This document shows, piece after piece, positions 2,940 through 63,624 of a DNA stretch of 64,000 nucleotides. Positions within the stretch are counted from its first letter, which is position 1. The number at the start of each line of letters is the position of its first letter. The translations under genes were made by a program, and so were the position numbers. The stretch spans positions 37,991-101,990 of the forward strand of contig URCH01000003.1 of the NCBI GenBank assembly GCA_900546275.1. Direction: 5' to 3'. Source of the stretch: an uncultured Mycoplasmatota bacterium (lineage in GTDB: Bacteria; Bacillota_I; Bacilli_A; RF39; UBA660). The notes beneath the pieces are model-generated. The model was not told the DNA's origin. It was given only the letters and a program-made list of their open reading frames with translations, and did not search any database.

Positions 2940-5081
2940 TTAAATTTGTTGTATTGTTTCATATAAACTAAACATTGGAATTACTATTGATAAAACAATT
3001 ACACCAACTATTGCAGTTAAGAAAACAAGTAATATTGGTTCCATTAATGTTTTAATTTTAGTAACCATATCTTTATGTAAGTCTTGATAGTATACAGAGA
3101 CTTTCTGCATCATTTCTGCTAATTGACCAGTACTTTCACCAGTCACCAACATCTCATATGCTGGAATTGGGAAAGCCCAATGATCCTTGAATGCCAAAGA
3201 TATTTTTTCACCCCTAGCAAGATTTGCAACCGTATCAACTATTATCATCTTATATATTTCATTATTAGTTATTTTATTTAATATATCCATACTATCAGTT
3301 ATATAAACATTATGAAATAATAAGGATGAAAAAGTTTTTGTAAGCATTGTAACTTCATTATATATTATTACATTTCCAATAACAGGTAAATGCATTAAGA
3401 ACCATTGCATTATAGTTCTAAATGGAGTTACTTTTTTATATAAAACAATTATTAATATAATAAATAAAACAATACCAAGTACAATAAATAATATATTTGC
3501 TTTAATAAAATCACTGACTGCTATTACAAATCTAGTAAACGCAGGGATCTTAGATGCATCCATTGATTCATACATTTTAACAAATTGTGGTACAACAAAT
3601 ATTAATATAAAAGTAATTACTACTATTGAAATAAAAAATACAATAGATGGATACATCATAGCATTAACCATTTGTTTTTTAGTTTGGTTTGCTTCGGTAT
3701 AATATTCAGCCATATCATCAAGTGACTCAGTTAATTCACCAGTTAATTCTGAAGCTTTAACCATATTTACCAATAATTTTGGAAATGTATTTCCTTGTTT
3801 TGCCATGGCGCTACTAAAACTTTCACCAGTTGATAAATCATATATCATTGTTCTAAATATATTTTTATATTTTTTTTGTTTATATTGTCTAGAAAGTATT
3901 TTTAATGCTTCAACTAAAGTAATACCTGCTTTTAAATAAGTAGATAATTGAGTTAAAAAGAATACTAAGTCTTTTGTTTTAAATTTTGGATTACCAGCTT
4001 CTCTATATAAATTCTGAATAAGCCAGTTAGTTTTTATACTATATACTTCATAACCTTCACTAAGTAAAAATGAGTGAACTTCTACTTTTGAATATGCAGC
4101 AAATCGTTCTTTAACTATTTTCCCTTCAGGATTTTTAGCTTCATATACATATACTATTTTATTTGCACTTTTTTCAGCGTCTTTTCCATCAAATTCAAGC
4201 ATTAGAGCTTGTCTATTTATATCTCTTTTGTTTCTTGCATTCTTAACAAATGATATATTATAAAATGCATTTTTAATCTTTTTACCAATAAGAGAAGGTA
4301 TTGTAGGAAGCATTTTAAAGAAAGCAGCAAGTTTTTGACTAGAAGTCATTTGATTTCTTTGTTTCTTTAGTTCTTCTTTTGCTTGTCTAACTTTTTCTTT
4401 TTCTAATTTTCTTTCTTCTTGTTCTTCAAGTTTTTTTCTAAGTTTTTCTTCTCTTAATTTTTCTTTTTCTAATTCTTTTGCAGTTTGTTTCTCTAACTTT
4501 TCTTTTTTTAATTTTTCTTTTTCTTCTTGTTTTTTTATTCTTTGTAAATACTTATCATCATTTTGTTTTAATAATTTTCTTTGTTCACGTAATTCTTCTT
4601 TTCTTAATCTTTTTTCTTCTCTAGCTTTTTCTCTTTTAGCAATTAGTTCATTCTTTTTTTGAATTCTTTCTTGTTGTTTTAAAAGTTTTTCTGCTTGTAA
4701 TTTTTCTTTTTTCTCTTTTCTTAATAATTTTCTTTGTTCATATAATTCTTCTTTTTTTAATCTTTTTTCTTCTCTTATTTTTTCTTTTTTAGCAATTAAT
4801 TCATTTTTTCTTTGAATTCTTTCTTGTTTTCTTAAAGTTTTTTCGGCATTATCGACATTATCAACATTATGTTTTTTATTTTTTAATAACATTTTATATA
4901 AATAAATAAAAGGTGTTGCAATTAAATATAAAACATATAAAATTCCTTTTAATGAATACATAATAAATTTAAATATATTATAAAATACAAAAAGTAAACC
5001 TAGAAATGGATACTTTATAAATTTTAATATAGTTGACAAAATATTATTACTTTTATTCGCCATATATTCATGCACTCCCAT
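2940..5081 (-). CDS. pilC: Type IV pilus platform protein PilC/GspF with a ~300-aa N-terminal extension (TM helix plus K/E-rich coiled coil)
   Basis: The C-terminal ~400 aa carry two GspF-type domains, including the IVYVYEAKNPEGKIVKERF start-like motif and a polytopic membrane region. The N-terminus has one hydrophobic helix followed by a lysine/glutamate-rich repeat. The likely true start is the second Met (MANKS...), which is preceded by a GGGAG ribosome-binding site. Confidence 0.8.
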   Translation of the reverse strand: MGVHEYMANKSNNILSTILKFIKYPFLGLLFVFYNIFKFIMYSLKGILYVLYLIATPFIYLYKMLLKNKKHNVDNVDNAEKTLRKQERIQRKNELIAKKEKIREEKRLKKEELYEQRKLLRKEKKEKLQAEKLLKQQERIQKKNELIAKREKAREEKRLRKEELREQRKLLKQNDDKYLQRIKKQEEKEKLKKEKLEKQTAKELEKEKLREEKLRKKLEEQEERKLEKEKVRQAKEELKKQRNQMTSSQKLAAFFKMLPTIPSLIGKKIKNAFYNISFVKNARNKRDINRQALMLEFDGKDAEKSANKIVYVYEAKNPEGKIVKERFAAYSKVEVHSFLLSEGYEVYSIKTNWLIQNLYREAGNPKFKTKDLVFFLTQLSTYLKAGITLVEALKILSRQYKQKKYKNIFRTMIYDLSTGESFSSAMAKQGNTFPKLLVNMVKASELTGELTESLDDMAEYYTEANQTKKQMVNAMMYPSIVFFISIVVITFILIFVVPQFVKMYESMDASKIPAFTRFVIAVSDFIKANILFIVLGIVLFIILIIVLYKKVTPFRTIMQWFLMHLPVIGNVIIYNEVTMLTKTFSSLLFHNVYITDSMDILNKITNNEIYKMIIVDTVANLARGEKISLAFKDHWAFPIPAYEMLVTGESTGQLAEMMQKVSVYYQDLHKDMVTKIKTLMEPILLVFLTAIVGVIVLSIVIPMFSLYETIQQI
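4524..4840. repeat. ~150-bp tandem duplication inside pilC, encoding two copies of QERIQ(R/K)KNELIAK(K/R)EK(I/A)REEKRL(K/R)KEEL(Y/R)EQRKLL
   Basis: The DNA copies at ~4570-4690 and ~4721-4840 are about 90% identical with a ~151-153 bp period. The protein repeats are clear in the supplied translation. Confidence 0.7.
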
Positions 5082-5626: not shown

Positions 5627-5650
5627 GCATTTATACAATAGTATAAATGC
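5627..5650 (-). terminator. Rho-independent terminator downstream of the lepB remnant
   Basis: Perfect 10-bp inverted repeat GCATTTATAC-aata-GTATAAATGC. On the minus strand it is followed by TTTTTTAT. Confidence 0.5.
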
Positions 5651-5761
5651 AACTGACTACCATAGTACAACATATTGTACTTTAGGTTCTAGAGTTTTGC
5701 GTTATTACCTTTCAATAACTTTGCCTGTGATAATTTTATAAGATTTTAATTTAAATGTCAA

Positions 5762-20980: not shown

Positions 20981-21274
20981 CTAAAATAATTCATCAATAG
21001 TTGTTACATCTTCATTTATTAATGAAACAAATACGGGAATATTATAACCTGAAAACATTTTTACTATATCATTAACATTTTTTAAAAACAAATCTTCTTT
21101 ATAAATAATTAGTTGTTTAATATTTTTTATTCCATAAGACTTTAATAATTCAATATTTTTTTTTATCAATTCATAATTACATGATAAATTAAGTGCCGTA
21201 TCATATCCAAGTTCATCAATTATTTCATCAACTTCTTGTTCATTTAAACCAATATTATATAAATCTTTTATCAT
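20981..21274 (-). CDS. Hypothetical 97-aa helical protein (cassette member 3)
   Basis: Overlaps the upstream ORF by 20 nt. Leu-rich ~30-aa helical repeat character. No recognised domain. Confidence 0.4.
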   Translation of the reverse strand: MIKDLYNIGLNEQEVDEIIDELGYDTALNLSCNYELIKKNIELLKSYGIKNIKQLIIYKEDLFLKNVNDIVKMFSGYNIPVFVSLINEDVTTIDELF

Positions 21275-22970
21275 ATATTTTTGCCTCCAAATTTATTTTT
21301 TTTACGCAAGAAATTACATTATTTAATTCTTCTTGTTTTAGCATTGTATTAAATGTAACTATATAAATTAATAAATCTTCATTAATTTTTACACCTTCAG
21401 AGTTAAAAACTTGTAAATATCTTATAACTTTATTTCTCGATATAATTACACCATTAAAATTGTATATCAAATTGTTATCATTATCTAAAAACAAACTATC
21501 AAGTTGTTCAATAATTCCACTGCTGTAATTTAAACCAAATAAATTTGTGTTTTCATTTATTAATTTTAAATAATAATTTTCTTGTTCACTTTCATATTTA
21601 ACAGCATTATATAACCCATATGTATCTTCTTTTTTATTTCCAAAATTTGAAGTTGAAGTCGTAAATTCACCCATTAAAACTCTCTTTGTAATACCATTTT
21701 TAGCATTCATATATTTAAATGGATTTATTCCATTAGAAATAGCATATTTAACTCTATAAAAGTTAATATCAGAACAACTTAATCTAGATATATTATCAGA
21801 AATATACTCATAACATCCACATTCTATAGCATTATCAAGTCTTTCTAAAAGCAAATCATCTCTCGATCTAAAAACATGAAAACTAATCATATCAGATGTT
21901 TTATTTTCAAAAATATTTATACCATATTTTCTTAATATTAAATCTGCATGTGACGCAGAATGACTAAAGAAACTACTACATTTAAGAAAAACAGTAGAAG
22001 GATTTAAATTGTGTTGGTGTAAAAATTCAATATTCTTAAAAAATGTATTGTTTAACCCCACTCTATGATTCTTATTGATAACTTTTTTCTTCGCATTATT
22101 TTTTTTGACTCTTCCTTCAAAAAACGTATTTTTTATTCTTGGAATTAAAATAGTTGGATAAAGTTTTAAAAGTTCTAAAATATTGTTTTCTTCACATTCT
22201 TGTACGGTTTTTTCAATTATTTCAGAATTTGAATGAACTAAAATATTTATTAAGACTTCATATTTATTAAATAAAAATTCCAAATTATTTAATTTCATTG
22301 TTTCCAAGTTATTTTCTATTTTGTTATAATTTCCATTTGTTTTAAGATAATTAATTAATTCACCACTTATTTTATTATAATCTATATCATACTTACTGAA
22401 AATAGGAATTAATAATTCATCTTCTAATAAAACATTTTCTTGTAATGATTGAGTTTTTGTATATATTAATTCATTATAATTATTTACGTGTAAAAACAAA
22501 TTTATCTTTTTATTTAAAGATATATTTTCATTATTTAAAAGTTCATTTATAAAATCAAATTCATCTATTATTTCCTCTTGATCTTTTATTTTTTCAATTA
22601 ATAATTCAATATTAAATATTTCATTTTCAAGTTGCATTATTAAGTCTTTATCATTAGTTTCTTTTAATTTATTTATTTGATTTTTTAATAAATTAATGCA
22701 ATTAATTTGTTTGTCATCAAATCCAACATCAATTATAACTTTCTTTACACTATCATCTAATAAAAAGTAGTTGTTTAAAAATTCTAATGTTTCTTTGTCA
22801 AATTTAAATTCAAATGTTTGACAAAGTTTATTAAATAAATTGTAATCTAAAAAAAGAATATTTTCTAAATCACATTTTTTTAATAAATTATTTTTTTCAT
22901 TAATTTGTTTCATAATTTTGTTATCATTTTCTAAACGAAAGTTCAAATAATTTAATAATTCATTTCCCAT
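21255..22970 (-). CDS. Hypothetical 571-aa protein (cassette member 2)
   Basis: N-terminal half is coiled-coil/Asn-rich. C-terminal half has Cys/His-containing segments (CSSFFSHSASHAD, ECGCYEYISDNISRLSCSD). No known family recognised. Confidence 0.45.
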   Translation of the reverse strand: MGNELLNYLNFRLENDNKIMKQINEKNNLLKKCDLENILFLDYNLFNKLCQTFEFKFDKETLEFLNNYFLLDDSVKKVIIDVGFDDKQINCINLLKNQINKLKETNDKDLIMQLENEIFNIELLIEKIKDQEEIIDEFDFINELLNNENISLNKKINLFLHVNNYNELIYTKTQSLQENVLLEDELLIPIFSKYDIDYNKISGELINYLKTNGNYNKIENNLETMKLNNLEFLFNKYEVLINILVHSNSEIIEKTVQECEENNILELLKLYPTILIPRIKNTFFEGRVKKNNAKKKVINKNHRVGLNNTFFKNIEFLHQHNLNPSTVFLKCSSFFSHSASHADLILRKYGINIFENKTSDMISFHVFRSRDDLLLERLDNAIECGCYEYISDNISRLSCSDINFYRVKYAISNGINPFKYMNAKNGITKRVLMGEFTTSTSNFGNKKEDTYGLYNAVKYESEQENYYLKLINENTNLFGLNYSSGIIEQLDSLFLDNDNNLIYNFNGVIISRNKVIRYLQVFNSEGVKINEDLLIYIVTFNTMLKQEELNNVISCVKKINLEAKIYDKRFI

Positions 22971-22972
22971 AA

Positions 22973-24418
22973 TTATATCTTCCTTTCATTTGTATTTGAC
23001 AAGCAACTACTTTCTAAATTTTTTAACATTTCATTTTGATTTTCAACAAATAATTCTACTTTTTCTTCATATTTTTTCTTTTCATCAGTAGTTAATTGTT
23101 CATATTTTTGAGGTTGAATCTGTAAAAAATTCAATATCTCATCAATATAATCTGAATTGTCATAACATGTTTTTAAAGCTTTTTCAAAATTAAGCTTTTT
23201 ATCTTGTGGAGTACTCTTACATACACCAAACACTATAATAGCATGGTTAATATTTTCATATTTTTTAACATACTTGCCAAAATTTACTCCAAATCTAGAT
23301 AAAATAATTCTATTACTTCCATTCTTTATTTCTTTAACCATATATTTTTGCAAAAACTCTTTACTATAATTATCAGTTTTTAACTTATGAGGTTCTAACG
23401 AATCATATTCCTTTGGTAACATAGTGATAACTGACTTCATTTTTCCAATTGTATTAATACAGCTTGCTGGCATTTCATTTTCTAAGGTAGAATGGCCATT
23501 TTCACCTAAAAATATTAATAAAGTTTTAGCTTCTTTGTCATAAAAATTATCTTTCTTACTTTCTTCTATACTTGTTAATCTATAGTATAAATCATTAGCT
23601 TTATCTACAACATCTAATAACTCTTGATAATATTCATCTAAAGGTTCACCTAACAAACAAGCAGTTTCTAACGAGTCATAACATATTTTTAATTTTTTTT
23701 GAATTTCTATAACCTCACTAAAATCAGAAGAAGAAATATTTTTGCTATATCTGTACCCTTGTGTAATATAATAATCAAAATTTTCTCTTAGTATTTTTGC
23801 TTCATTTAAACATTCTCTACACATATCAGGAATTTCGTTTTCTGCGAATTCTTCTTTTTCCTCTATAAAATCTTCTTTTATTTCAGTTTTAATTAAATTA
23901 TCTTCTTTTGACTTTATTACATTTTTTAAATAATTAGCATTATCTTTTGCAAGTTCCATTGTTAATTCATATTGCATATTCTCATCACAATTTAATGAAT
24001 TTATTATTAAATCTATTTCATTGTTTGAAATAAATCTTTTAGAATGTTCATTTAAGATAGTTATTGTTTTTTTCTTATTTAAAATAATACTATTTAATTT
24101 TTCATATTGCAATTCTAGTTGATGTTTCTGATCTTTAATTGTATCTATAATTTTGTTAATTTTTTCTTTTATCCTTTTTATTTGCCCGGAAAATACATTT
24201 GCATCTAATTTTGGAAGTGTTTTTATTAAATTTAATAACTCAATTTTATCGTTTTCATTTAGATAACTAAAATTTTCCAATTTTACTTCATCTAACTCAT
24301 CAGCTTGATACATTTTAATAAATTTATTCAATGAATTTATTTCATTAATTATCTGTCTTAGTTGTGCTAATATATCATCTATTTGAGCCTTAGAGTTTTC
24401 TATTAATTTTTCTATCAT
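22973..24418 (-). CDS. Hypothetical 481-aa protein with a long N-terminal coiled coil (cassette member 1)
   Basis: Its stop is 2 nt from the downstream start, and its start is 2 nt after the tgt stop. Contains a CRECLNEAK segment and a C-terminal alpha/beta-looking region. No known family recognised. Confidence 0.45.
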   Translation of the reverse strand: MIEKLIENSKAQIDDILAQLRQIINEINSLNKFIKMYQADELDEVKLENFSYLNENDKIELLNLIKTLPKLDANVFSGQIKRIKEKINKIIDTIKDQKHQLELQYEKLNSIILNKKKTITILNEHSKRFISNNEIDLIINSLNCDENMQYELTMELAKDNANYLKNVIKSKEDNLIKTEIKEDFIEEKEEFAENEIPDMCRECLNEAKILRENFDYYITQGYRYSKNISSSDFSEVIEIQKKLKICYDSLETACLLGEPLDEYYQELLDVVDKANDLYYRLTSIEESKKDNFYDKEAKTLLIFLGENGHSTLENEMPASCINTIGKMKSVITMLPKEYDSLEPHKLKTDNYSKEFLQKYMVKEIKNGSNRIILSRFGVNFGKYVKKYENINHAIIVFGVCKSTPQDKKLNFEKALKTCYDNSDYIDEILNFLQIQPQKYEQLTTDEKKKYEEKVELFVENQNEMLKNLESSCLSNTNERKI

Positions 24419-26221: not shown

Positions 26222-27349
26222 ATGATAGATATAGATGGAAAAAAATATGAAATAAATAGAAAAACTGCTATTGTAACTAACTGGGATAAAATTTATTGTA
26301 ACATATTAAAAAGAATATTAAAAAAAGGAGAATTGTGCAAAAACAGAACAGGAATTGATACTTTATCTATTGAAGGAGTATATTTTAAATTAGATGTTGG
26401 TAAATCTTTTCCTATTCTTGAAACAAAAAAAGTAGCACTTGCTAATACAATTACAGAACTACTTTGGATATATCAAGCACAAACTAATGATGTAAAATGG
26501 CTTCATGATAGACAAAATCATATATGGGATGACTGGATGATAGATGATGATGGTATATATCGTATATATGAACCATATATTAATGAAAATAAAAAAAATA
26601 TTGTAAAAGTAAAAGACATATATGGAAATGATACTAATCTAACTGCTAGTAGTTTAAAGGAAAATAGAACCATAAAAGAAGCTATTTACTATGGACCTGA
26701 ATATGCTCATACCATTGGTACTGCTTATGGATATGTCGTTAAAGAAACAAAAGAATTTGATAATGTATTATATTCATTAAAAAATAATCCTACAAGTAGA
26801 AGAAATGTTGTATCATTAAGACAAGCTAATTTACTTAAAACTGGTGTATTAGAACCTTGTGTATGGGCAAGTACATATAAAGTTTCTAATGGAAAATTAA
26901 ATATTAATGTAGATGTAAGAAGTAATGATATGCCGATTGGCAATCCATTCAATGTAACACAATATGCAATTTTACTTAGTTTACTTGCAAAAGTATCTAA
27001 TTTAGAAGTTGGTAATTTAAACTGGACGATATCTGATTGTCATATATATGTTAATCAATTAGAACAAATTAAACTACAATTAAGTAGATTTGATAAATTA
27101 TTAAAATGGGAAAGTTTTATAAAAAATAATGATGATAAAGAAATAATTAAAGAATATAAAAAAATATTAGAAGGTTCTGATATTGAAGAATTAATGACAT
27201 TAAAGCACCTTATTACAAGAGAAAATCCAGAACTTTATTTAAGCAACAAAGATAATTTTTATGAATTTGATAATAAAAAAGAAAATGAAGATATAAAAGT
27301 TTTAAAATATAAGTCATTACCATATATAAAAATGCCAGTAGCCCAATAA
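26222..27349 (+). CDS. Thymidylate synthase (ThyA) family protein with insertions and an ~80-aa C-terminal extension
   Basis: Conserved ThyA residues are present: KNRTG (Arg21), ELLWIY...IWDDW folate-binding segment, SRRNVVSL (Arg126'/127'), EPC (catalytic Cys), RSND (Arg166), NPFNV (Asn177, uracil-specific) and SDCHIY (His207/Tyr209). The His after the catalytic Cys is replaced by Val. Length is 375 aa versus the usual 264-320. Confidence 0.7.
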   Translation: MIDIDGKKYEINRKTAIVTNWDKIYCNILKRILKKGELCKNRTGIDTLSIEGVYFKLDVGKSFPILETKKVALANTITELLWIYQAQTNDVKWLHDRQNHIWDDWMIDDDGIYRIYEPYINENKKNIVKVKDIYGNDTNLTASSLKENRTIKEAIYYGPEYAHTIGTAYGYVVKETKEFDNVLYSLKNNPTSRRNVVSLRQANLLKTGVLEPCVWASTYKVSNGKLNINVDVRSNDMPIGNPFNVTQYAILLSLLAKVSNLEVGNLNWTISDCHIYVNQLEQIKLQLSRFDKLLKWESFIKNNDDKEIIKEYKKILEGSDIEELMTLKHLITRENPELYLSNKDNFYEFDNKKENEDIKVLKYKSLPYIKMPVAQ

Positions 27350-28406: not shown

Positions 28407-29747
28407 TTAACTAGCATCCTTTATAATCAAAGCATCCTTTATTTTTTCTAGATGCATTCCTCTAGAACCTTTAAGTAATATACAACAATCTGTAATATTT
28501 AAATCACTTAAAAATGTAATAACTTCTTCACTTGTATTAAAGCTTGAACAATTAACATATTTATTTATTAATTTCATATTTGTGCCTACTGTAATAACAG
28601 AAATATTATTTTTAATCTTATACTTTTTTAAAAATCGTCCTATTTTTAAATGGATTTTTTTTGAATAACTACCAAGTTCTAGAATATCACCTAATATAAT
28701 TATTTTTTTATCTTTAAAATTTTTAATCATATTTAAAGAACTTATTAATGATTCATAACTAGAATTATAACAATCATCAACCAAAATTATATTATCTTTT
28801 AATAATAAAATATTATTTCTTCCTGAAATTTGTTCAAACGTACTAATACGTTCTATTATATCTTCTATACTCATTCCATAAATTAAGCTTGTTTTAATAA
28901 CAAGTAATATATTGTTAATTAATGAACTGTTTGGAATATTAAATTTTATATTATAATTCTTATTTTTATAAATTATTGAAAAGAATAAATGTTCATATGT
29001 AGTAATTACATTATATACTTTAAACTCATTTATATTATATACAATATTATTTTTATTTTTTTTAATTTTCTTTAAATATTTATCTTTATTATTTAATAAC
29101 AATATACCATCATTAAGACCATCTGTTATTTCAAGTTTGGCTTTTAAAATATTTTTTTGACTTTTCAAATATCCAATATGTGAAGTTCCTATATTAGTTA
29201 TAATACATGTGTTTGGTAAAACCATTTTTGATAAATTACTTATTTCATTTAAATGATTCATACCCATTTCTAAAATTATTAAATTATAAATTTCATTTAA
29301 ATTAAAAATCGTCATAGGAACACCTATATTATTGTTATAATTTTTTTTAGTATATAATATTTTATATTTTTCATTTAATACATGATATAGTAATTCTTTA
29401 GTAGTAGTTTTTCCCACACTACCTGTGATTGCTATTAAAGGAATATTTATATATTTAAGTCGTATATAATTTGAAAGAGTTCCCATAAATGATATAGTAT
29501 CATCTACTTTTATTACTAAAACATCTGATGTGACAATAACATCTTTACTTACAATAATACAGCTACATTTATTTTCTATTTCCTTTATATAATTATGTCC
29601 ATCATCGTTTTTGCCTTTTATACATATAAATATATCATTTATTTCAACTTTTCTAGAATCTATTTGAATATTACCTATCTTTTGATCTAATATATTTCCA
29701 TTTATAATTTCACCATTACTTATTTTTAATATATCATGTAAATTCAC
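28407..29747 (-). CDS. murF: UDP-N-acetylmuramoyl-tripeptide--D-alanyl-D-alanine ligase
   Basis: MurF N-terminal domain (IDSRKVEINDIFICIKGKNDDGH) and Mur ligase P-loop GSVGKTTTKE. Confidence 0.8.
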   Translation of the reverse strand: MNLHDILKISNGEIINGNILDQKIGNIQIDSRKVEINDIFICIKGKNDDGHNYIKEIENKCSCIIVSKDVIVTSDVLVIKVDDTISFMGTLSNYIRLKYINIPLIAITGSVGKTTTKELLYHVLNEKYKILYTKKNYNNNIGVPMTIFNLNEIYNLIILEMGMNHLNEISNLSKMVLPNTCIITNIGTSHIGYLKSQKNILKAKLEITDGLNDGILLLNNKDKYLKKIKKNKNNIVYNINEFKVYNVITTYEHLFFSIIYKNKNYNIKFNIPNSSLINNILLVIKTSLIYGMSIEDIIERISTFEQISGRNNILLLKDNIILVDDCYNSSYESLISSLNMIKNFKDKKIIILGDILELGSYSKKIHLKIGRFLKKYKIKNNISVITVGTNMKLINKYVNCSSFNTSEEVITFLSDLNITDCCILLKGSRGMHLEKIKDALIIKDAS

Positions 29748-29749
29748 AC

Positions 29750-30340
29750 CTATTCCCCCTTACATGACTCTATAAAACTATCAAGTAATTGTTTTGATAC
29801 TATATCATATGAAATCATTGATTCGGGGTGCCACTGTACTCCTATAATATATTTTTTGTTTGGCACTTCAATTGCTTCAATAACATTATCTTGTGAATAT
29901 GCAGATATTTTTAAATCAGTATTTGATAACTTATATTTATGCCTACTATTAACCTTAATTTTAGAACGATTTAATATTTTAAAAATTTTTGATGATGAGT
30001 CTATGTTTACAAAATGATAATCACTTTTTGAATAATGATTATCAACTAGTTCCAAATTTCCATTAAAATATTTACCTAAACTTTGCATACCCATACATAT
30101 TCCAAGAAGAGATAAATCAAATTCATAAGCATACTTTATTACTAAAAAATCAATTGTTTCATAATCACCACCTGGTAATATAAAACCATCACAAAGTTTT
30201 AACAAAGAAATATCATAATTTATTAATGGAATAATTCTTACATTTTCAAGTATTAAATAATCACAAAGTTTTTTATTAAAAACATATACATCATTATTTT
30301 CAGTCTTATCTATTCTACATACAACTCCTATAGTTATCAT
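29750..30340 (-). CDS. Class I glutamine amidotransferase (gamma-glutamyl hydrolase/PuuD-like)
   Basis: GICMGMQ nucleophile elbow and GVQWHPE motif. Confidence 0.7.
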   Translation of the reverse strand: MITIGVVCRIDKTENNDVYVFNKKLCDYLILENVRIIPLINYDISLLKLCDGFILPGGDYETIDFLVIKYAYEFDLSLLGICMGMQSLGKYFNGNLELVDNHYSKSDYHFVNIDSSSKIFKILNRSKIKVNSRHKYKLSNTDLKISAYSQDNVIEAIEVPNKKYIIGVQWHPESMISYDIVSKQLLDSFIESCKGE

Positions 30341-30409: not shown

Positions 30410-30628
30410 TTAGTCCATATATTTACTCATTGATTTCATCATTTGATTAACTTGTTTTTGACTAGGTGTTCTACCCATTTGAGTCATCATAGCTTTAATC
30501 ATTTGTTCATTAATAGGTGGATTTTTCTTTAAATATTTTTTCATATAATTACGAGCTATAAAAAATCCTATAACTCCACCTGCTATTAATCCTACTAATA
30601 TTTTTAATATATCTAAAAATAATTCCAT
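30410..30628 (-). CDS. yneF: UPF0154 family small membrane protein (YneF-like)
   Basis: 72 aa. N-terminal TM helix [16 protein letters not shown] followed by a basic helix. Conserved neighbourhood with sirA and lexA. Confidence 0.7.
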
Positions 30629-30679: not shown

Positions 30680-31099
30680 CTATATTAATGTATATTTGTT
30701 TTTTATTACAATATGCTCATCTAACCAAAAATAGTCTTCATTTTTAAAATCAACTACAAAAATACACATATTACTTGAATATATACTTCCCATGGATTTT
30801 GGATAATTCATATTTGTATTATATAAAATACAAGAATTTTTAATTGTTACTAATGATTCTTCTTTTGTTTCATTTATTAAAAATTTATCATTATTTATTT
30901 TTATATATTCAAAAAAACAGTTTTCTACTTGTTTTTTTGGTATTCTATCACATATTTGATTGAAAAGAGAAACACCATATGATAAATTTTCTTTTTTTAA
31001 TTTATATAAATTTTCTAAAGTTTTATATAATACATAAGAATTGTTTTTATATACTAGGTAAAATTCTTTTCTTATGTTAAAAAGATAGTATTTTCTCAA
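30680..31099 (-). CDS. sirA: Sporulation inhibitor of replication SirA-like (YneE/DUF2522)
   Basis: N-terminus MRKYYLFNIRKEF resembles SirA MERHYYTYLIKEEF. Size 139 aa. It sits between yneF and lexA as in Bacillus. Confidence 0.5.
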   Translation of the reverse strand: MRKYYLFNIRKEFYLVYKNNSYVLYKTLENLYKLKKENLSYGVSLFNQICDRIPKKQVENCFFEYIKINNDKFLINETKEESLVTIKNSCILYNTNMNYPKSMGSIYSSNMCIFVVDFKNEDYFWLDEHIVIKNKYTLI

Positions 31100-31172
31100 A
31101 AAGTATCACCTTTATTTATTTTATAATTTATTATTAGCTTTTTTTGTCAAAAAATGTTTAAAATAAAAATAG

Positions 31173-31316
31173 TTATATAGTATTAAGAGCTACATAACTA
31201 TTTTCAATCTTATAACTTTCTTCCATTCTAACAGTTCCAATAGCATTAACATATGTAACTCCTAAGAATACCAATATAAATAATATTATTCCTTTACTTT
31301 TAATCATTTCTCTCAT
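31173..31316 (-). CDS. Unannotated 47-aa single-pass membrane protein divergent from lexA (candidate SOS-induced division inhibitor, YneA/SosA analogue)
   Basis: Reverse translation gives MREMIKSKGIILFILVFLGVTYVNAIGTVRMEESYKIENSYVALNTI*. A GAAGGAGAG ribosome-binding site lies 8 nt upstream. It was not in the ORF track, presumably because it is below the size cutoff. Confidence 0.4.
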   Translation of the reverse strand: MREMIKSKGIILFILVFLGVTYVNAIGTVRMEESYKIENSYVALNTI

Positions 31317-31350
31317 ACTATCTCTCCTTCACTAAAATAAGTTTATCACA

Positions 31351-31391
31351 AACAATTGTTCGTGTCAATTGTAATTACAAACATTTGTTTG
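31351..31391. promoter_or_regulatory. Two LexA (Cheo/SOS-box-like) palindromes in the lexA / small-ORF divergent promoter region
   Basis: AAACAATTGTTCG (31351-31363) and CAAACATTTGTTTG (31378-31391). Both fit the GAAC-N4-GTTC dyad with one or two mismatches. The second overlaps a TTGACT -35 (31390-31395). A -10 TAAACT is at 31413-31418. lexA uses a GTG start with an AAGGAGG ribosome-binding site. Confidence 0.55.
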
Positions 31392-31442
31392 ACTTTTTGT
31401 AAAAATAATGTTAAACTGTAAATGTAATAAAGGAGGTTACTT

Positions 31443-32060
31443 GTGAAAGAATTAACAAAACGACAAAATGAAATTCTTACATACATAAAAAAATATATGG
31501 TATCACATGGATACCCACCCACTATTAGAGAAATTGGAGCTGATCTTGGCGTATCATCACCTGCTACTATACATGCACATTTAGCTAATCTAGAAAGTAA
31601 AGGTTTTATTAAAAAAGAAGATACAAAAAATAGAGCTATTGAATTACTTGTAGAAAATGAATATGCTATAAAAGATGAGGAAGTAGTTTCTGTACCTTTA
31701 CTTGGTAAAATAACAGCAGGTAGTCCTATCGAAGCAATTGAAAGACCTGATGAATATTTTTCATTACCAGCTTACTTAATTCCAAATAACAAAGAAGTTT
31801 TTACTCTTCTTGTAAGTGGTACAAGTATGATTAATGCAGGAATATTAGATGGAGATATAGTTATAGTAGAAAGAAGAAACAGTGCGAGAAATGGTGAAAT
31901 AGTAGTCGCTATGACTGATGAAAATGAAGTTACTTTAAAAACATTCTATAAAGAATCAGGATATTTTAGATTACAACCTGAAAATGATACTATGGATCCA
32001 ATAATATTAAATAATGTTACAATATTGGGTAAAGCAATCGGATTATATAGAAAATTATAA
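31443..32060 (+). CDS. lexA: SOS repressor LexA
   Basis: N-terminal winged HTH (GYPPTIREIGADLGVSSPATIHAHL) and C-terminal S24 peptidase with Ser (GTSM) and Lys (TLKTF region). Confidence 0.95.
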   Translation: MKELTKRQNEILTYIKKYMVSHGYPPTIREIGADLGVSSPATIHAHLANLESKGFIKKEDTKNRAIELLVENEYAIKDEEVVSVPLLGKITAGSPIEAIERPDEYFSLPAYLIPNNKEVFTLLVSGTSMINAGILDGDIVIVERRNSARNGEIVVAMTDENEVTLKTFYKESGYFRLQPENDTMDPIILNNVTILGKAIGLYRKL

Positions 32061-32082
32061 AAAAAGGCAAATAAGTTATAAC

Positions 32083-34056
32083 TTATTTGCTTTTATTTTC
32101 TTTTATTTTATCAATAACTATATTTACTATGAAGAATACAACAAATATTAAACCAACTATTAATAAGTTTTGTAAAAGTAAAGAACTTTCAATTGAAACT
32201 ATAGTTTCTTTTATTAATTTTACAGTATATGTCATTGGTAAAATTGGGTTTAGGAATCTAAATCCTTTAGTTACTGTTTCTATTGGGAATGTACCACCTG
32301 ATGCTGCAAGTTGTAATACCAATATAATAAGTGCTACAAACTTACCTATATCACCAAAATTCATTATTAAGAATTCAATAATTGCTAAGAAACAATTTGA
32401 AACTAACACAATTACAAAGTAATATAAGAATATATTTGTAATACTAAAATCTAATAAGATTTGAAGTAAGAATGCTAATAAAACGCCAGACAATGTTGCA
32501 AGTCCATGATATGCAAGTGTTCTTTTAACTCTTTTTTCTGAATCAATTCCAAGTAATCCAAATCTTTCGTTTTTGTCATAGTAAAGAACTATAAACATCA
32601 TTAAACTTCCTACCCATAAAGCAATAGAAATGAATAATGGAGCAAATGCAGTACCATAACTTGATATTTCATTTACTGTTTTAGTTTCTATATTAACAGG
32701 TTCTTTAGCATATTCGGATAAAGAATCTACTTTTTTTAATTCCTCTTTTGTTTCAGATATTTTATTATCTAATTCTTTTTTAGCACTTGAAACGCTACTA
32801 TTTAATGTAACAGTACCATTTTCTAAAGTTGTAATTCCTGTATAAAGTGAAGTTGAACCTTCATTTAATTTATATAATCCATCTGTTAATGAACTTATTC
32901 CAGAATTTAAAGTTGTAAGTGATTCTATTGATTTTTCAGTTGCTTGTTTTTTTGCACTTGTTGCAACACTCTTAGCTACATTTTCACTAACTGTATTTGC
33001 AGTTTGTACTGAAGCAGTATAAGAAGCTTCAACAGCTGTATTATATATAGACATATATAGTATACTAGAAGAATCATTTAATTGACTTACTAAAGTATCT
33101 AATTGTATATATGAATTACAATAATTTTTTAAAGCTTCATTAACTGTTGAACTACTACAATAAGCTTTTACATCTGTAACACCATATGCAGATAATTGAT
33201 TAAGTAATCCTTGTTCTATTTGTTTCATTTTTGCTTGATATGTTGATTTAACTGAAGCAACTGCTTTAACACCTATTACTTTTTTATAATCATCAGTAAA
33301 TGTAGAGTTTACACTTCCATTAACTTGTTTTTTTATTGTATTAAGTGTTGCATTATCGATTGCTGCTGTATTATCATTTTTTAAACTTTCAATTGAAGCA
33401 CTAAGTTTATCATTAATAGTTTTACTACCATTATAAGCACTTTCTATTCCTGATTTTAATGTTTCAGTACCTGTTTTAATTTCAGTTACTCCATTTTTTA
33501 ATTTATTTGTTCCTTCTAACAAATTTCCAAAACCATCACTTATAGTATTTAAACTATCTGGAACTTCTTTTAGTTTATCTTCTAAAGAAGCAATGATTCC
33601 TGAATTTATTTCATTATCTAAACTTTTTTCAGCTGTTATAACAACTGTATTAATTATTTGACTAGATAAATAATTTGATTTTTGATTTGGAGAATATGTA
33701 ATTGTAGGATGTACTTTTTCTACTTCTCCTGCACTTTCTATATTCTTTGAAAAATCTGATGGAATATTAATAACTGCATAGTATTTGCCATCGTTAAGAC
33801 CATCTGTTGCATCTTTTTCATTAACTACGTCTAGTTTTAATTTTTTAGAATCTTTAATACTGTTAACTAATGATTCACCTTTTTCTCCTTCGTCACTATT
33901 TATAATTGCTACTGGTAAATTATCGATGTTACCTTCACCATATGGATTCCAGTAAGCTTTCAAATAGAAAAAACTGTACATAAAAGGTATTATTAATACT
34001 GCACATATTATAATGTTTCTAAATAATTTGTTTTCTTTTGCTTTTTTCTTTTTCAT
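32083..34056 (-). CDS. YhgE/Pip domain membrane protein (phage infection protein-like)
   Basis: N-terminal TM helix, a long extracellular coiled-coil or low-complexity Ser/Thr-rich region, and a C-terminal ABC-2-like six-TM domain. Confidence 0.8.
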   Translation of the reverse strand: MKKKKAKENKLFRNIIICAVLIIPFMYSFFYLKAYWNPYGEGNIDNLPVAIINSDEGEKGESLVNSIKDSKKLKLDVVNEKDATDGLNDGKYYAVINIPSDFSKNIESAGEVEKVHPTITYSPNQKSNYLSSQIINTVVITAEKSLDNEINSGIIASLEDKLKEVPDSLNTISDGFGNLLEGTNKLKNGVTEIKTGTETLKSGIESAYNGSKTINDKLSASIESLKNDNTAAIDNATLNTIKKQVNGSVNSTFTDDYKKVIGVKAVASVKSTYQAKMKQIEQGLLNQLSAYGVTDVKAYCSSSTVNEALKNYCNSYIQLDTLVSQLNDSSSILYMSIYNTAVEASYTASVQTANTVSENVAKSVATSAKKQATEKSIESLTTLNSGISSLTDGLYKLNEGSTSLYTGITTLENGTVTLNSSVSSAKKELDNKISETKEELKKVDSLSEYAKEPVNIETKTVNEISSYGTAFAPLFISIALWVGSLMMFIVLYYDKNERFGLLGIDSEKRVKRTLAYHGLATLSGVLLAFLLQILLDFSITNIFLYYFVIVLVSNCFLAIIEFLIMNFGDIGKFVALIILVLQLAASGGTFPIETVTKGFRFLNPILPMTYTVKLIKETIVSIESSLLLQNLLIVGLIFVVFFIVNIVIDKIKENKSK

Positions 34057-60373: not shown

Positions 60374-60995
60374 TAGCTATTTCAAAATCATCTGCTTCAT
60401 CTATATCAATTGCTTCTACTTTTGACACCACTTTCAAATAAGGATTATTACCTATCCTTCTATTCAATTCTAAAATAGTTTGTTTTGAATATACATAAAA
60501 TCCACTTGTTTCTGAATATATAAATGGTAAATCCTGAGTTCTAGGAATAGCAGATAAATTATAATTAAGAGGTTCACCATTTTTCCATAAAAATTCTTGA
60601 AGTAATTGAACTGAAAATGAAGAATCATATTCACCACTCAAAACGTGCTCAATGCCATCAGATATACTACTTTCAGTAATAAATGGAGCAGTAACATGAG
60701 CTAAAACATATAAATCTGAGTCAACTTTATTTGCAAAACTTTGTAAAATTTCATTCATTTTTGTAGTTGAACTATCTAGATTTTCACTTCTTTTTAAAAA
60801 TTTTATTCCATCAGGAATATAATCTTTTATTGTTTCGTTACTACAATAAACGTATATTTCATCTATTTTTTTTACTTTCTTTAGTGTATTTAACAGATAT
60901 GTACATAAAGGCTCTCCATTGTCAAATTTTTTAATATTCTTATTTTTTAGTCGCTCATTATTAAGTTTTATAGGGACTACTGCAACTACTTTCAT
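60336..60995 (-). CDS. Cytidylyltransferase (NeuA/KdsB/PseF CTP_transf_3 family)
   Basis: N-terminal AVVPIKLNNERLKNKN matches the acylneuraminate cytidylyltransferase signature (IPAR.GSK...NKN). Confidence 0.7.
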   Translation of the reverse strand: MKVVAVVPIKLNNERLKNKNIKKFDNGEPLCTYLLNTLKKVKKIDEIYVYCSNETIKDYIPDGIKFLKRSENLDSSTTKMNEILQSFANKVDSDLYVLAHVTAPFITESSISDGIEHVLSGEYDSSFSVQLLQEFLWKNGEPLNYNLSAIPRTQDLPFIYSETSGFYVYSKQTILELNRRIGNNPYLKVVSKVEAIDIDEADDFEIANAIYNFRRRKNG

Positions 60996-62086
60996 ATTTT
61001 TTCCTCCAAATCATTTAACATTTTACTTAGTTGTTTTTTATCAGAAACAACTTTTATATTGTTATCATTTCTACAAATATTTTGAAAAAATTTTTCAAAA
61101 TATTTTTCATGCATTATCAAAAATTTTCCTTTTAAAAGTTTATACAATAAAATAATCTTAGCATTATTATCAAAAATTGTTTTTGTATTAACTGCTGCTG
61201 AAGAACTTATTGTAAATAGAACTTTATCATCAAGATTGTTATTAATGCAAAATATTTCCCAAGAAACATTAGTATTTAAGAGTTTAATTTTAGAATTAGG
61301 AAATTGTTTTGTATTTCTTGGATGTCTTTTAACAATAAAATTTTCGTAACCAACACATTTTGCAATATCATCTATTAAATTCATATACTCATCAATATCA
61401 TCTATAAACTCGAAAGCTTCTTCGAAAAAAATATATTTTTCTTTGATAGTTAAACCTTTAAAATCAAAAGCATTGTTAATACTAGTAACTAAAGATTTAT
61501 TATTAACGTCGATTAATTCAATATTCTTTATATCTCTATTTGAATCTCCAACAAAAAGTTTTGGTCTATAAAAATACATATCATAATCAATATAACTTAA
61601 ATCACAATTATATATAAATTTAATTAATTTTGTATATTTTCCTTTTGTATATACTTTAGGTAATTCTCTTAAATAACTTATAACACCCTCTTCATATAAA
61701 TGGAATTTTATATTTTTATTTCTTTTACATTGATACTTATATATTTCATAAAAAATTTCATTATTATTAAAGAAAAATATTTCATCATATACGTCCAATT
61801 TCTCACCTAACATAATTTTAACATTTTTTGTATTATTAAAAATTTGTTTTATATTAGATGTTTTACTATTCTTATTTTTTGGTAACTTCGAACTATCTGC
61901 ATAATATACTTTATTAAAAACATCATTTAATTTTTTATTTTTATATAAATAATTCAAATATTTTGTTTTATCACTAACCATAATATCAACAACATCTATA
62001 TCTGATAAAAGTGTTTTTCTTAAATTTATAGAATTTAACAATTGATATAAAGTATGAACTATCATTAAAATTCTTTTATTTTTCAT
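60992..62086 (-). CDS. Putative GT52-like (lipooligosaccharide sialyltransferase Lst-type) glycosyltransferase
   Basis: The segment IVKRHPRNTKQF...LNTNVSWEIF resembles, from memory, the VAPHPRQTYG...LNSPYVIEDYI region of Neisseria Lst. It is adjacent to the cytidylyltransferase. Confidence 0.4.
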   Translation of the reverse strand: MKNKRILMIVHTLYQLLNSINLRKTLLSDIDVVDIMVSDKTKYLNYLYKNKKLNDVFNKVYYADSSKLPKNKNSKTSNIKQIFNNTKNVKIMLGEKLDVYDEIFFFNNNEIFYEIYKYQCKRNKNIKFHLYEEGVISYLRELPKVYTKGKYTKLIKFIYNCDLSYIDYDMYFYRPKLFVGDSNRDIKNIELIDVNNKSLVTSINNAFDFKGLTIKEKYIFFEEAFEFIDDIDEYMNLIDDIAKCVGYENFIVKRHPRNTKQFPNSKIKLLNTNVSWEIFCINNNLDDKVLFTISSSAAVNTKTIFDNNAKIILLYKLLKGKFLIMHEKYFEKFFQNICRNDNNIKVVSDKKQLSKMLNDLEEKI

Positions 62087-63624
62087 TATACTACCACCTT
62101 TTTCTTAAAAATTTTACTTTTTATCATAATTATAAATTGATCTCTTTCTGTTTTGTTAAATAAAACAATAAAGTTTATTATTAATCCAATTACGCCAGAA
62201 ATTCCACATATAGCAATTAAGTAAAGCCAATTTGTTATTTTGAAAATACTACCAATAAAAGTAAAACAAACTATTAATAATACTGAAGAAAAAAGACATT
62301 TAAAAATGGTAGGATAAAAAGTTTTTTTAGATATATTTAAGCACTTGGAAGCATATATAGGTGTAAATGTCAAATTTTTAATAGTTCCAACCAATATACT
62401 AATTCCTGCAATAGCATATATACCTAAATTAGTAAATTTTAAAACAAAAAATAATAATAATACATTCAAGAAACCTAAACATATAGTAACAATTGAATTT
62501 ACTTTTAATTTATTGGTAATTGTAAAAGTATCAAATAAACTATTTATTGCAGCTGAAACAATTCCTCCGGCAATTGTTATAACTGTTAAATGATATATTA
62601 ATAATACATTTTGATTAGGTAACCACAAATTAATAAATTGATATCCAAATGCAATCAATCCACAAATAACAATATTAGAAAAAAAAGTTGTTAATTTCAT
62701 TGAAAAAATCATTTCTTTTACAAAAGCGGAAATATTATTTTTTGCATAGTGAATTGTAAGTTGAGGTTGAAACACAGCAGTAACAGTACAAATTAAGTTA
62801 TTTACAATAGTAGATAATGTTTTTGCTACAGCTAACTGTCCCATAGCAACAGAATCTATAAAAATATTACTTAATAACAAGTCCAAGCCATCAGATAATA
62901 TTTGACCCAATTTCGTAATTGTATTCCAAATCCCTGAAGCAATAATTTGAACTACTTTTTTAAAATCATAATATATTTTTTTTATCTTAATATTTGGTAA
63001 TAATTTTTTAGTATATATAATATTAAAAATCAAAACATATAATGAGGAAATACAAGTTGCAACACCTATAAATGAAACTGAGGTTCCTAAAAATGAAAAG
63101 AACAAAATTAAAAATACAACCCTTATAATATTGGACTCTAAATTTCTAAGTGAACTGATATCCAATCTATTTGCAGCATATGTCGAAACGGAAAACACCG
63201 AGTTCATAATTCCTATAAAAAAATTTATAAAAACCAATAAAAATAGGATTTTAACGTCATTTGTAATAAATGTAGGAATTGAAATAAACTTATCCAAAAA
63301 TATTACACATATTATTGATGGAATAAGTAAAATTAAAGATAAAAAAGCATTTGCTGCAAAAATAGATGTAAAATATTTGTTTGCCTCTTCAATATTATCT
63401 TGATGTATATATATTGTAATATATCTCCCAGCCATAGAATTTAAAGCGATTGTAAGCAATGAAGCATAATTAACAAAATTATTTGCTAATGAAATAAAAC
63501 CGTATGCTTCAACTCCTACATTTTCAGTAACATAAGGGGTCAAGAAAAAGCTTATTCCCAAATTAATAACAAACATCATCAATGATAAAAACATATTTAT
63601 TGATAATCTTTTTTTATTAGTCAT
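62086..63624 (-). CDS. MOP-family oligosaccharide flippase (Wzx-like)
   Basis: 512 aa, ~14 TM helices and a typical Wzx N-terminus. Confidence 0.8.
   Translation of the reverse strand: MTNKKRLSINMFLSLMMFVINLGISFFLTPYVTENVGVEAYGFISLANNFVNYASLLTIALNSMAGRYITIYIHQDNIEEANKYFTSIFAANAFLSLILLIPSIICVIFLDKFISIPTFITNDVKILFLLVFINFFIGIMNSVFSVSTYAANRLDISSLRNLESNIIRVVFLILFFSFLGTSVSFIGVATCISSLYVLIFNIIYTKKLLPNIKIKKIYYDFKKVVQIIASGIWNTITKLGQILSDGLDLLLSNIFIDSVAMGQLAVAKTLSTIVNNLICTVTAVFQPQLTIHYAKNNISAFVKEMIFSMKLTTFFSNIVICGLIAFGYQFINLWLPNQNVLLIYHLTVITIAGGIVSAAINSLFDTFTITNKLKVNSIVTICLGFLNVLLLFFVLKFTNLGIYAIAGISILVGTIKNLTFTPIYASKCLNISKKTFYPTIFKCLFSSVLLIVCFTFIGSIFKITNWLYLIAICGISGVIGLIINFIVLFNKTERDQFIIMIKSKIFKKKVVV

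Follow-up and report, generated by a model that had tools for sequence, protein, structure and literature searches.

The lexA region of an uncultured Mycoplasmatota bacterium of the RF39 lineage lies within a 64-kb stretch of contig URCH01000003.1 (64,000 nucleotides, G+C content 24%; hereafter the window), and we describe here a small gene that faces lexA. The lexA gene occupies positions 31443–32060 of the plus strand and encodes 205 amino acids from a GTG start preceded by AAGGAGG. Its product matches TIGR00498 over the full length (E = 1.3e-67) and carries both the LexA_DNA_bind (PF01726) and the Peptidase_S24 (PF00717) domains; judged by these matches, lexA is genuine. A bidirectional terminator follows it at 32063–32094. 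On the other side, across an intergenic gap of 126 nucleotides (nt), the small gene runs divergently on the minus strand at 31173–31316. It consists of 47 codons beginning with ATG and encodes the protein MREMIKSKGIILFILVFLGVTYVNAIGTVRMEESYKIENSYVALNTI. Its Shine-Dalgarno sequence, GAAGGAGAG (31322–31330, minus strand), ends 5 nt before the ATG. A preliminary description of this DNA, made from the letters alone, had reported a 47-codon open reading frame (ORF) with a strong ribosome-binding site divergent from lexA, and the sequence agrees on each point. The other genes of the window are ordinary chromosomal ones (sigA, dnaG, relA, tgt, thyA, murC, mutL, uvrC, a D-Ala-D-Ala carboxypeptidase gene and a type IV pilus set); hence, the locus is not on a mobile element.

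We looked for relatives of the small protein in a word-indexed search that covered 5.8 billion proteins, and found five homologues with 62–98% identity. Four of them are exactly 47 residues long; the fifth is a 57-residue call with the first 46 residues identical and an aberrant end. Their contigs come from human gut metagenomes, Hadza samples included, and on all of them the small gene is divergent from lexA. A wider set of loci was collected with the LexA protein as query, taking one genome per species. It comprises 80 loci with LexA proteins 66–85% identical, all from metagenome-assembled genomes of uncultured ‘Bacilli’, ‘Mycoplasmatota’ or ‘Tenericutes’. Two relatives have names, Candidatus Faecisoma (one of the 80 loci) and Candidatus Faecimonas (the source label of a family member); both are placed in GTDB order RF39. 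In about 72 of the 80 loci, the gene next to lexA on the divergent side is a single-helix ORF; one further locus reaches the contig edge just past the conserved promoter. These ORFs span 28–57 residues (42–57 in most), start with ATG in nearly every case (GTG once) and have a GGAG-type Shine-Dalgarno sequence before the chosen start in nearly all relatives. Three of them, of 28–34 residues, are apparently truncated (28 in locus L071, 32 in L042 and 34 in L082). These versions stop right after the hydrophobic helix, and may be natural tail-less variants or decaying genes.

The probability of finding 47 open codons by chance at the G+C content of the window is about 0.007–0.02, yet the frame is kept in about 72 of the 80 related species, which argues for a real gene and not a chance frame. 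Nucleotide changes between the window and loci L001 and L004 fall mostly in third positions (dN/dS, the ratio of nonsynonymous to synonymous rates, 0.24–0.38 by the Nei-Gojobori method), as is seen in genes under purifying selection, and we take the small gene to be one of them. The ORF is almost certainly a real gene. The preliminary description had made its proposal hang on conservation of the ORF in relatives, and the comparison just given found such conservation, with 42–57 residues in most species. It had also called the gene unannotated and liable to be missed. This is only partly right: public gene callers, including those applied to metagenomes, do predict the small gene and its relatives, but the products are named at most ‘hypothetical protein’.

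The DNA between the two genes contains two promoter-like elements and two predicted LexA operators. The promoter of the small gene (31340–31368, minus strand) has a –35 element TTGACA at 31363–31368, a 17-nt spacer and a TG-extended –10 element TAAACT at 31340–31345; a consensus scan gives 10 of 12 matches plus the TG. The inferred leader of the mRNA is about 15–20 nt long. Together with the strong Shine-Dalgarno sequence, such a leader would leave no room for post-transcriptional gating. The first predicted operator, CAAACAATTGTTCG (CGAACAATTGTTTG on the minus strand), has the form CGAAC-N4-GTTTG and lies at 31349–31362, where it takes 14 of the 17 spacer bases between TTGACA and TAAACT. A repressor bound there would be placed to exclude RNA polymerase. 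The second, CAAACATTTGTTTG, lies at 31378–31391 and overlaps by 3 nt the –35 element of the lexA promoter (31389–31417, plus strand; –35 TTGACT at 31389–31394, 17-nt spacer, TG-extended –10 TAAACT); it is presumably the site of lexA autoregulation. Both dyads had been noticed earlier, the second as overlying the lexA –35, and that layout is what we observe.

We then asked how specific these boxes are. The two are the sole occurrences in the window of the 14-base Cheo-type pattern CRAAY-N4-GTTYG, which gives 4 strand-matches versus 0.63 expected, a number reached in none of 100 shuffles. For the looser 12-mer RAAC-N4-GTTY, the window shows no enrichment (8 matches versus 4.7 expected); only the 14-mer with the flanking C and G is informative. 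Neither uvrC nor mutL of the window has a CRAAY-N4-GTTYG box, and no second regulon member was found in the window to calibrate the motif. Phylogenetic footprinting provided a wider comparison. The 95 nt located 5' of the start codon were aligned across relatives, and 69 promoters were examined. The arrangement TTGACA-CGAA(C/T)-N4-GTTCG-TG-n-TAnnAT is conserved in 67 of the 69. At the position of the first operator, 54 of 67 relatives carry a box that departs from CGAAC-N4-GTTCG by one mismatch at most, and the distance from the –35 TTGACA to the ATG is fixed at 51–59 nt in 66 of 67 loci. Most of the 80 loci also have a lexA-proximal box, CAAAC-N4-GTT(T/C)G, about 50–60 nt 5' of the start of lexA, while the 15–25 nt of DNA between the two boxes are free to diverge. 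In sequence terms, the operator-in-promoter architecture is conserved, and the small gene is very probably controlled by LexA.

One group of loci has an additional feature in this region. In a Candidatus Faecisoma-like lineage, an extra ORF of 60–73 residues (MEYYTIKDIQLLTGYS...) separates lexA from the small membrane gene, whose start codon it overlaps (L047, 3678–3893; L048, 3677–3898; L053, 838–1050; L055, 1353–1574; all minus strand). The extra ORF has no Pfam match in these four loci, and the strict LexA-box pattern finds no box upstream of their lexA genes. In two other loci the slot divergent from lexA is filled differently: by a 3-methyladenine glycosylase gene in L040 (about position 3870, minus strand; PF03352, E = 6e-36) and by an unassigned ORF behind LexA-like boxes in L059 (about position 3900).

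The protein itself consists of a basic N-terminus (MREMIKSK), one hydrophobic helix (residues ~9–29) and an 18-residue tail, which is acidic and Asn-rich and ends in YVALNTI. This organization is shared by the family. Over 72 members, the most hydrophobic stretch of 18 residues has an average Kyte-Doolittle hydropathy of 2.3. Of the 72, 64 carry a net positive charge on the N-terminal segment, whose median length is 8 residues, and 50 a net negative charge on the tail, which has a median length of 19 residues and abounds in N, E, S and D; the N-terminal segment is the more positive of the two in 63. By the positive-inside rule, this charge asymmetry predicts a bitopic protein with a single helix, the N-terminus inside and the C-terminus outside (N-in/C-out). 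An AlphaFold2 model built from a 98-sequence alignment consists of one long helix, confident only in the membrane segment (residues ~10–30), with a predicted local distance difference test score (pLDDT) above 87 for residues 11–30; the tail gains nothing from the model. Hydropathy, charge asymmetry and the modeled helix, all of them predictions, are thus in line with the single transmembrane helix proposed earlier. Conservation peaks in the cytoplasmic motif MKEMLKSK and at helix positions I11, F13, G19 and Y22, a pattern in favor of a function in the membrane. The tail varies most, except for a hydrophobic-x-hydrophobic-Asn motif at its end (V/I42, N45). Just outside the membrane, a basic, then a hydrophobic, then an acidic residue is a frequent order. 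The conserved Gly, Ser/Thr and Tyr of the helix would suit a specific contact between this helix and one in a partner membrane protein.

Known families do not account for this protein. The window protein has no match in Pfam, NCBIfam or PHROGs, and 64 family members gave only scattered sub-threshold matches to these libraries, none common to more than two of the 64. The LysM domain (PF01476) was found neither in the window protein (E ≤ 1) nor in the 64 members (E ≤ 0.1). The NCBIfam YneA model NF010723 is matched by none of the 64, while a YneA-like sequence used as control reaches 93.5 bits on it (cut-off 60). Aligned by hhalign with this control, the family profile gave a probability of 0.8%. 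We rejected a truncated YneA, as there is no profile similarity to the NF010723-validated control. We also considered the C-terminal Y-V-x-L-N motif as a relic of the first LysM strand and dropped the idea, six residues being too few. By any testable criterion of sequence, the family is not YneA. Run exhaustively with HMMER against 1.84 billion cluster representatives (E ≤ 0.001), the family profile retrieved 197 clusters at 50% identity. The best 150 of the 197 are all RF39-type proteins of 33–84 residues, which speaks indirectly against homology to the 77-residue SosA. We looked among the matches for longer bridging homologues and rejected this possibility: all those above about 57 residues that were read are N-terminal over-calls, which translate through the operator region, or have frameshifted or contig-end tails. 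The earlier suggestion of a distinct family without LysM is therefore supported, and we place it, as a new sequence family, in the known class of SOS membrane checkpoint proteins linked to lexA.

The genes next to the small gene are also informative. A 139-residue ORF at 30680–31099 (minus strand) is homologous to sirA (yneE). As a single sequence it falls below the Pfam threshold (PF10747, E = 4.8e-4), and phmmer of this protein alone against PDB gave no match. A profile of 16 homologues, however, matches B. subtilis SirA (PDB 4tps_A) over nearly its full length (E = 5.8e-9), and this profile match confirms the identity of the ORF as sirA. SirA is a sporulation inhibitor of replication, found here in a small-genome uncultured gut bacterium. 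Further on lies a yneF (UPF0154) homologue (30410–30628, minus strand; PF03672, E = 2.9e-31). Its best NCBIfam match is the YneF model NF002503 (E = 6.7e-30), with 102.8 bits, under the curated cut-off of 135. Many relatives have the transketolase gene tkt between the small gene and sirA, giving the order lexA <> small ORF - tkt - sirA - yneF. The order in B. subtilis is lexA <> yneA yneB ynzC - tkt - sirA (yneE) - yneF. Since the flanking tkt-sirA-yneF genes of relatives match this order, the small gene stands in the yneA slot of an ancestral gene block of the Bacilli, which is where the preliminary description had placed it. The gene directly downstream differs among relatives (tkt, sirA, yneF or others), whereas the small gene and its operator are fixed. 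In locus L021, a MazG-type pyrophosphohydrolase gene (3356–3730) directly follows the small gene.

The spacer between the small gene and sirA (31130–31160) contains the palindromic sequence TTTTTTGACAAAAAA, conserved at the same position in L001–L005. On the minus strand it reads as a –35 element for sirA (promoter-like TTGACA at 31145–31150), and on the plus strand as a weaker TTGTCA. A window scan, which is crude for DNA of 24% G+C, detected no terminator between the small gene and the sirA homologue. SOS read-through from the small gene into sirA is conceivable.

Small membrane proteins of similar setting are known from other bacteria. The SOS division inhibitors of Gram-positive bacteria are single-pass proteins, co-localized with lexA and mutually non-homologous (PMC6851548). 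By analogy with two of them, YneA and SosA, we consider the product of the small gene to be, with moderate confidence, an SOS-induced bitopic division inhibitor. SosA resembles it in being a small N-in/C-out single-pass protein without LysM, a layout shared by the RF39 family. SosA has 77 residues, about 47 of them external, versus 47 and about 18 in the RF39 protein, and it is reported to be restricted to staphylococci. Its membrane-proximal region and extreme C-terminus are conserved, the external part is needed for activity and the extreme C-terminus for CtpA-dependent turnover (PMC6851548). In the RF39 family, by contrast, the best-conserved part is the N-terminus with the helix and not the external part.

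YneA of B. subtilis and Listeria shares with the RF39 protein the slot, the LexA-operator logic and the bitopic topology. It is larger, at about 105 residues, and cannot inhibit without its LysM domain, whereas the RF39 family has none. The helix of YneA binds transmembrane helix 7 (TM7) of FtsW and blocks septal peptidoglycan synthesis, and AlphaFold3 models put SosA, ChiZ and SidA on FtsW too (PMC13396833). The proteases CtpA and DdcP remove YneA. The 29-residue SidA of Caulobacter crescentus, likewise LexA-controlled, is a minimal membrane peptide with hardly any external domain, and it acts on FtsW/FtsN late in division. By analogy, it is the best functional model for the action of so small a protein. 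SidA differs in being alphaproteobacterial and unrelated in sequence, and AlphaFold3 puts it on the opposite face of FtsW TM7; we know of no link between SidA and lexA. ChiZ (Rv2719c) of Mycobacterium and DivS of Corynebacterium are SOS-regulated inhibitors encoded beside lexA (PMC6851548). Both are actinobacterial and much larger, and ChiZ carries LysM and is a reported cell wall hydrolase. TisB and DinQ of E. coli, small hydrophobic SOS-induced peptides of another kind, are considered with the alternatives below.

The division-inhibitor reading suggests the following course of events. In an undamaged cell, LexA would sit on the spacer operator and on the operator at the lexA –35, and both genes would be shut. 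Upon DNA damage, RecA-stimulated self-cleavage of LexA would free the strong promoter of the small gene, and the short leader with its strong Shine-Dalgarno sequence would permit immediate translation. The protein would insert N-in/C-out, exposing a tail of about 18 residues. Like YneA, SosA and SidA, it would then stall a late division step until repair is finished. The likeliest target would be the septal peptidoglycan synthase FtsW with its class B penicillin-binding protein (PBP), bound through the helix; by analogy with the known inhibitors, we name FtsW only tentatively. Removal would probably proceed by extracytoplasmic proteolysis recognizing the C-terminal tail. A bolder proposal, which we regard as speculative and rather unlikely, is that the family represents the smallest form of a Gram-positive SOS checkpoint protein: the helix, the eight-residue cytoplasmic motif MKEMLKSK and the tail of about 18 residues would suffice to stop FtsW-PBP without a peptidoglycan-binding domain, unlike YneA with its need for LysM, and read-through into sirA would block both division and DnaA-dependent replication initiation from one promoter.

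The window contains several wall genes: murC, the D-Ala-D-Ala carboxypeptidase gene and a pair encoding a Mur-ligase-domain protein (446 residues) and then a class I glutamine amidotransferase (196 residues) at 28407–30340 on the minus strand. The pair resembles MurT/GatD of lipid II amidation. With murC and the DD-carboxypeptidase, it points to a walled organism. RF39 species are mostly predicted to be walled (PMC10868615).

Several observations weigh against a division inhibitor of this kind. Neither FtsW nor a CtpA-type protease was found within the 64-kb window. Small LexA-controlled hydrophobic peptides can be toxins too, as TisB and DinQ are. The small gene is missing in 7 of the 80 loci, with another gene after lexA in five of the seven, and hence is dispensable. 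At the end of the helix, small residues at –1 and aliphatic ones at –3 occur in about two thirds of the family, which would allow a cleavable signal peptide. Finally, the helix of YneA alone is septal but does not block division, for which LysM is required (PMC13396833). Since the helix alone is insufficient there, a protein with so short and poorly conserved a tail must act otherwise than YneA, and more like the 29-residue SidA.

Two of these points lead directly to alternative functions. The small protein might be a membrane toxin of the TisB/DinQ type, which dissipates the proton-motive force and brings about dormancy without acting specifically on the divisome. A single-helix peptide under apparent LexA control, with a short and poorly conserved external tail and an AlphaFold2 model that is a single helix, speaks for such a toxin. 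TisB and DinQ, however, each have an antisense RNA partner and a long structured leader, and long structured 5' untranslated regions are typical of type I toxin mRNAs. At the RF39 locus the leader is only about 15–20 nt long, with an exposed strong Shine-Dalgarno sequence, and the nearly constant promoter-ATG distance of the relatives leaves no space for a longer one. No Rfam family was found at the locus on either strand, by a scan of the whole window or by a permissive scan of the locus, and the sole antisense promoter-like match arises from the palindromic TTGACA in the promoter of the downstream gene, read in reverse; an uncharacterized antisense RNA is nonetheless conceivable. A strict single-copy site adjacent to lexA in a vertically inherited block is typical of division inhibitors and not of type I toxins (PMC6851548), and the conserved Gly, Ser/Thr and Tyr of the helix, together with the cytoplasmic motif, suggest a specific protein partner. 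We therefore regard a toxin as unlikely. The signal-peptide features at the helix end raise another alternative, namely that a 25-residue Sec signal is cut after VNA(25) and about 22 residues (IGTVRMEESYKIENSYVALNTI) are released as a signal, a wall-active or a bacteriocin-like factor. The n-h-c architecture is that of a signal peptide; A, S or G is aligned to A25, with I, L or V at –3, in about two thirds of members, and at least one site obeying the –3/–1 rule exists in 52 of 64, although chance alone readily satisfies so simple a rule. YneA, too, enters the medium when overexpressed (PMC6051672). On the other hand, the supposed mature part is the least conserved and the supposed signal part the most, opposite to the common pattern of secreted peptides; among the distant members, many show F at –3 or no site at all; and the full-length membrane form of YneA is reported to be the active one. 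A secreted peptide appears improbable.

The gene could also serve the SOS response in some other way, as a first cistron reading through into tkt, sirA and yneF, or as an anchor or regulator of a membrane protease or of competence. Consistent with read-through, a search for intrinsic terminators past the small ORF, although crude for DNA of such base composition, detected none in the window and none in 55 of 68 relatives, and the next gene is sirA in the window and tkt in many relatives. But a conserved promoter-like TTGACA belongs to the downstream gene itself, the downstream partner changes while the small gene and its operator stay, and it is the peptide sequence that is conserved (dN/dS < 0.4, motifs) and not a mere open frame. 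We give such roles little weight. Lastly, one could dismiss the ORF, which is short and belongs to no database family, as a chance open frame in an AT-rich spacer where only the lexA operators are functional. Its low probability by chance together with its persistence in relatives with Shine-Dalgarno sequence and start codon, the signs of purifying selection and its own promoter with an embedded operator refute this explanation, which retains almost no plausibility. An SOS-induced membrane inhibitor of division remains the reading that we prefer.

Elsewhere in the window, several features unrelated to the small gene deserve mention. A cyclic di-GMP-I riboswitch (RF01051, 61.9 bits; 5645–5735, minus strand) lies upstream of a type IV pilus/type II secretion system (T2SS) gene set, which includes a 713-residue PilC-like T2SSF protein (2940–5081), a prepilin peptidase (2157–2930) and a T2SSE ATPase (861–2135). 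The thymidylate synthase ORF (26222–27349, plus strand) has 375 residues and is seemingly longer than the usual ThyA; several NCBIfam models match two separate stretches of it, which suggests an insertion or extension. Four large adjacent ORFs of 571, 481, 364 and 512 residues lie at 21255–24418 and 60992–63624, all on the minus strand. The 571- and 481-residue ORFs have no Pfam or NCBIfam match, and the 364- and 512-residue ORFs have no Pfam match.

SOS-induced small inhibitors of late division are now thought to be the common bacterial answer to the need for a damage checkpoint, each lineage having its own unrelated inhibitor, and only a handful are known. The family described here, of 197 clusters, adds a well-delimited member from uncultured small-genome gut Bacilli related to RF39, for which, to our knowledge, no cell-cycle control factor appears to be known. 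The find will not surprise a specialist, yet it is clean, compact and tractable by heterologous expression, and the phylogenetic footprint for both gene and operator is unusually clear. With 42–57 residues and no wall-binding domain, the proteins are compact natural candidates for FtsW-PBP ligands, and could help to define the minimal determinants of inhibition of shape, elongation, division and sporulation (SEDS) proteins. The lexA-yneA-tkt-sirA-yneF block of Bacillus also persists in this reduced lineage, with the gene in the yneA slot either replaced or remodeled beyond recognition.

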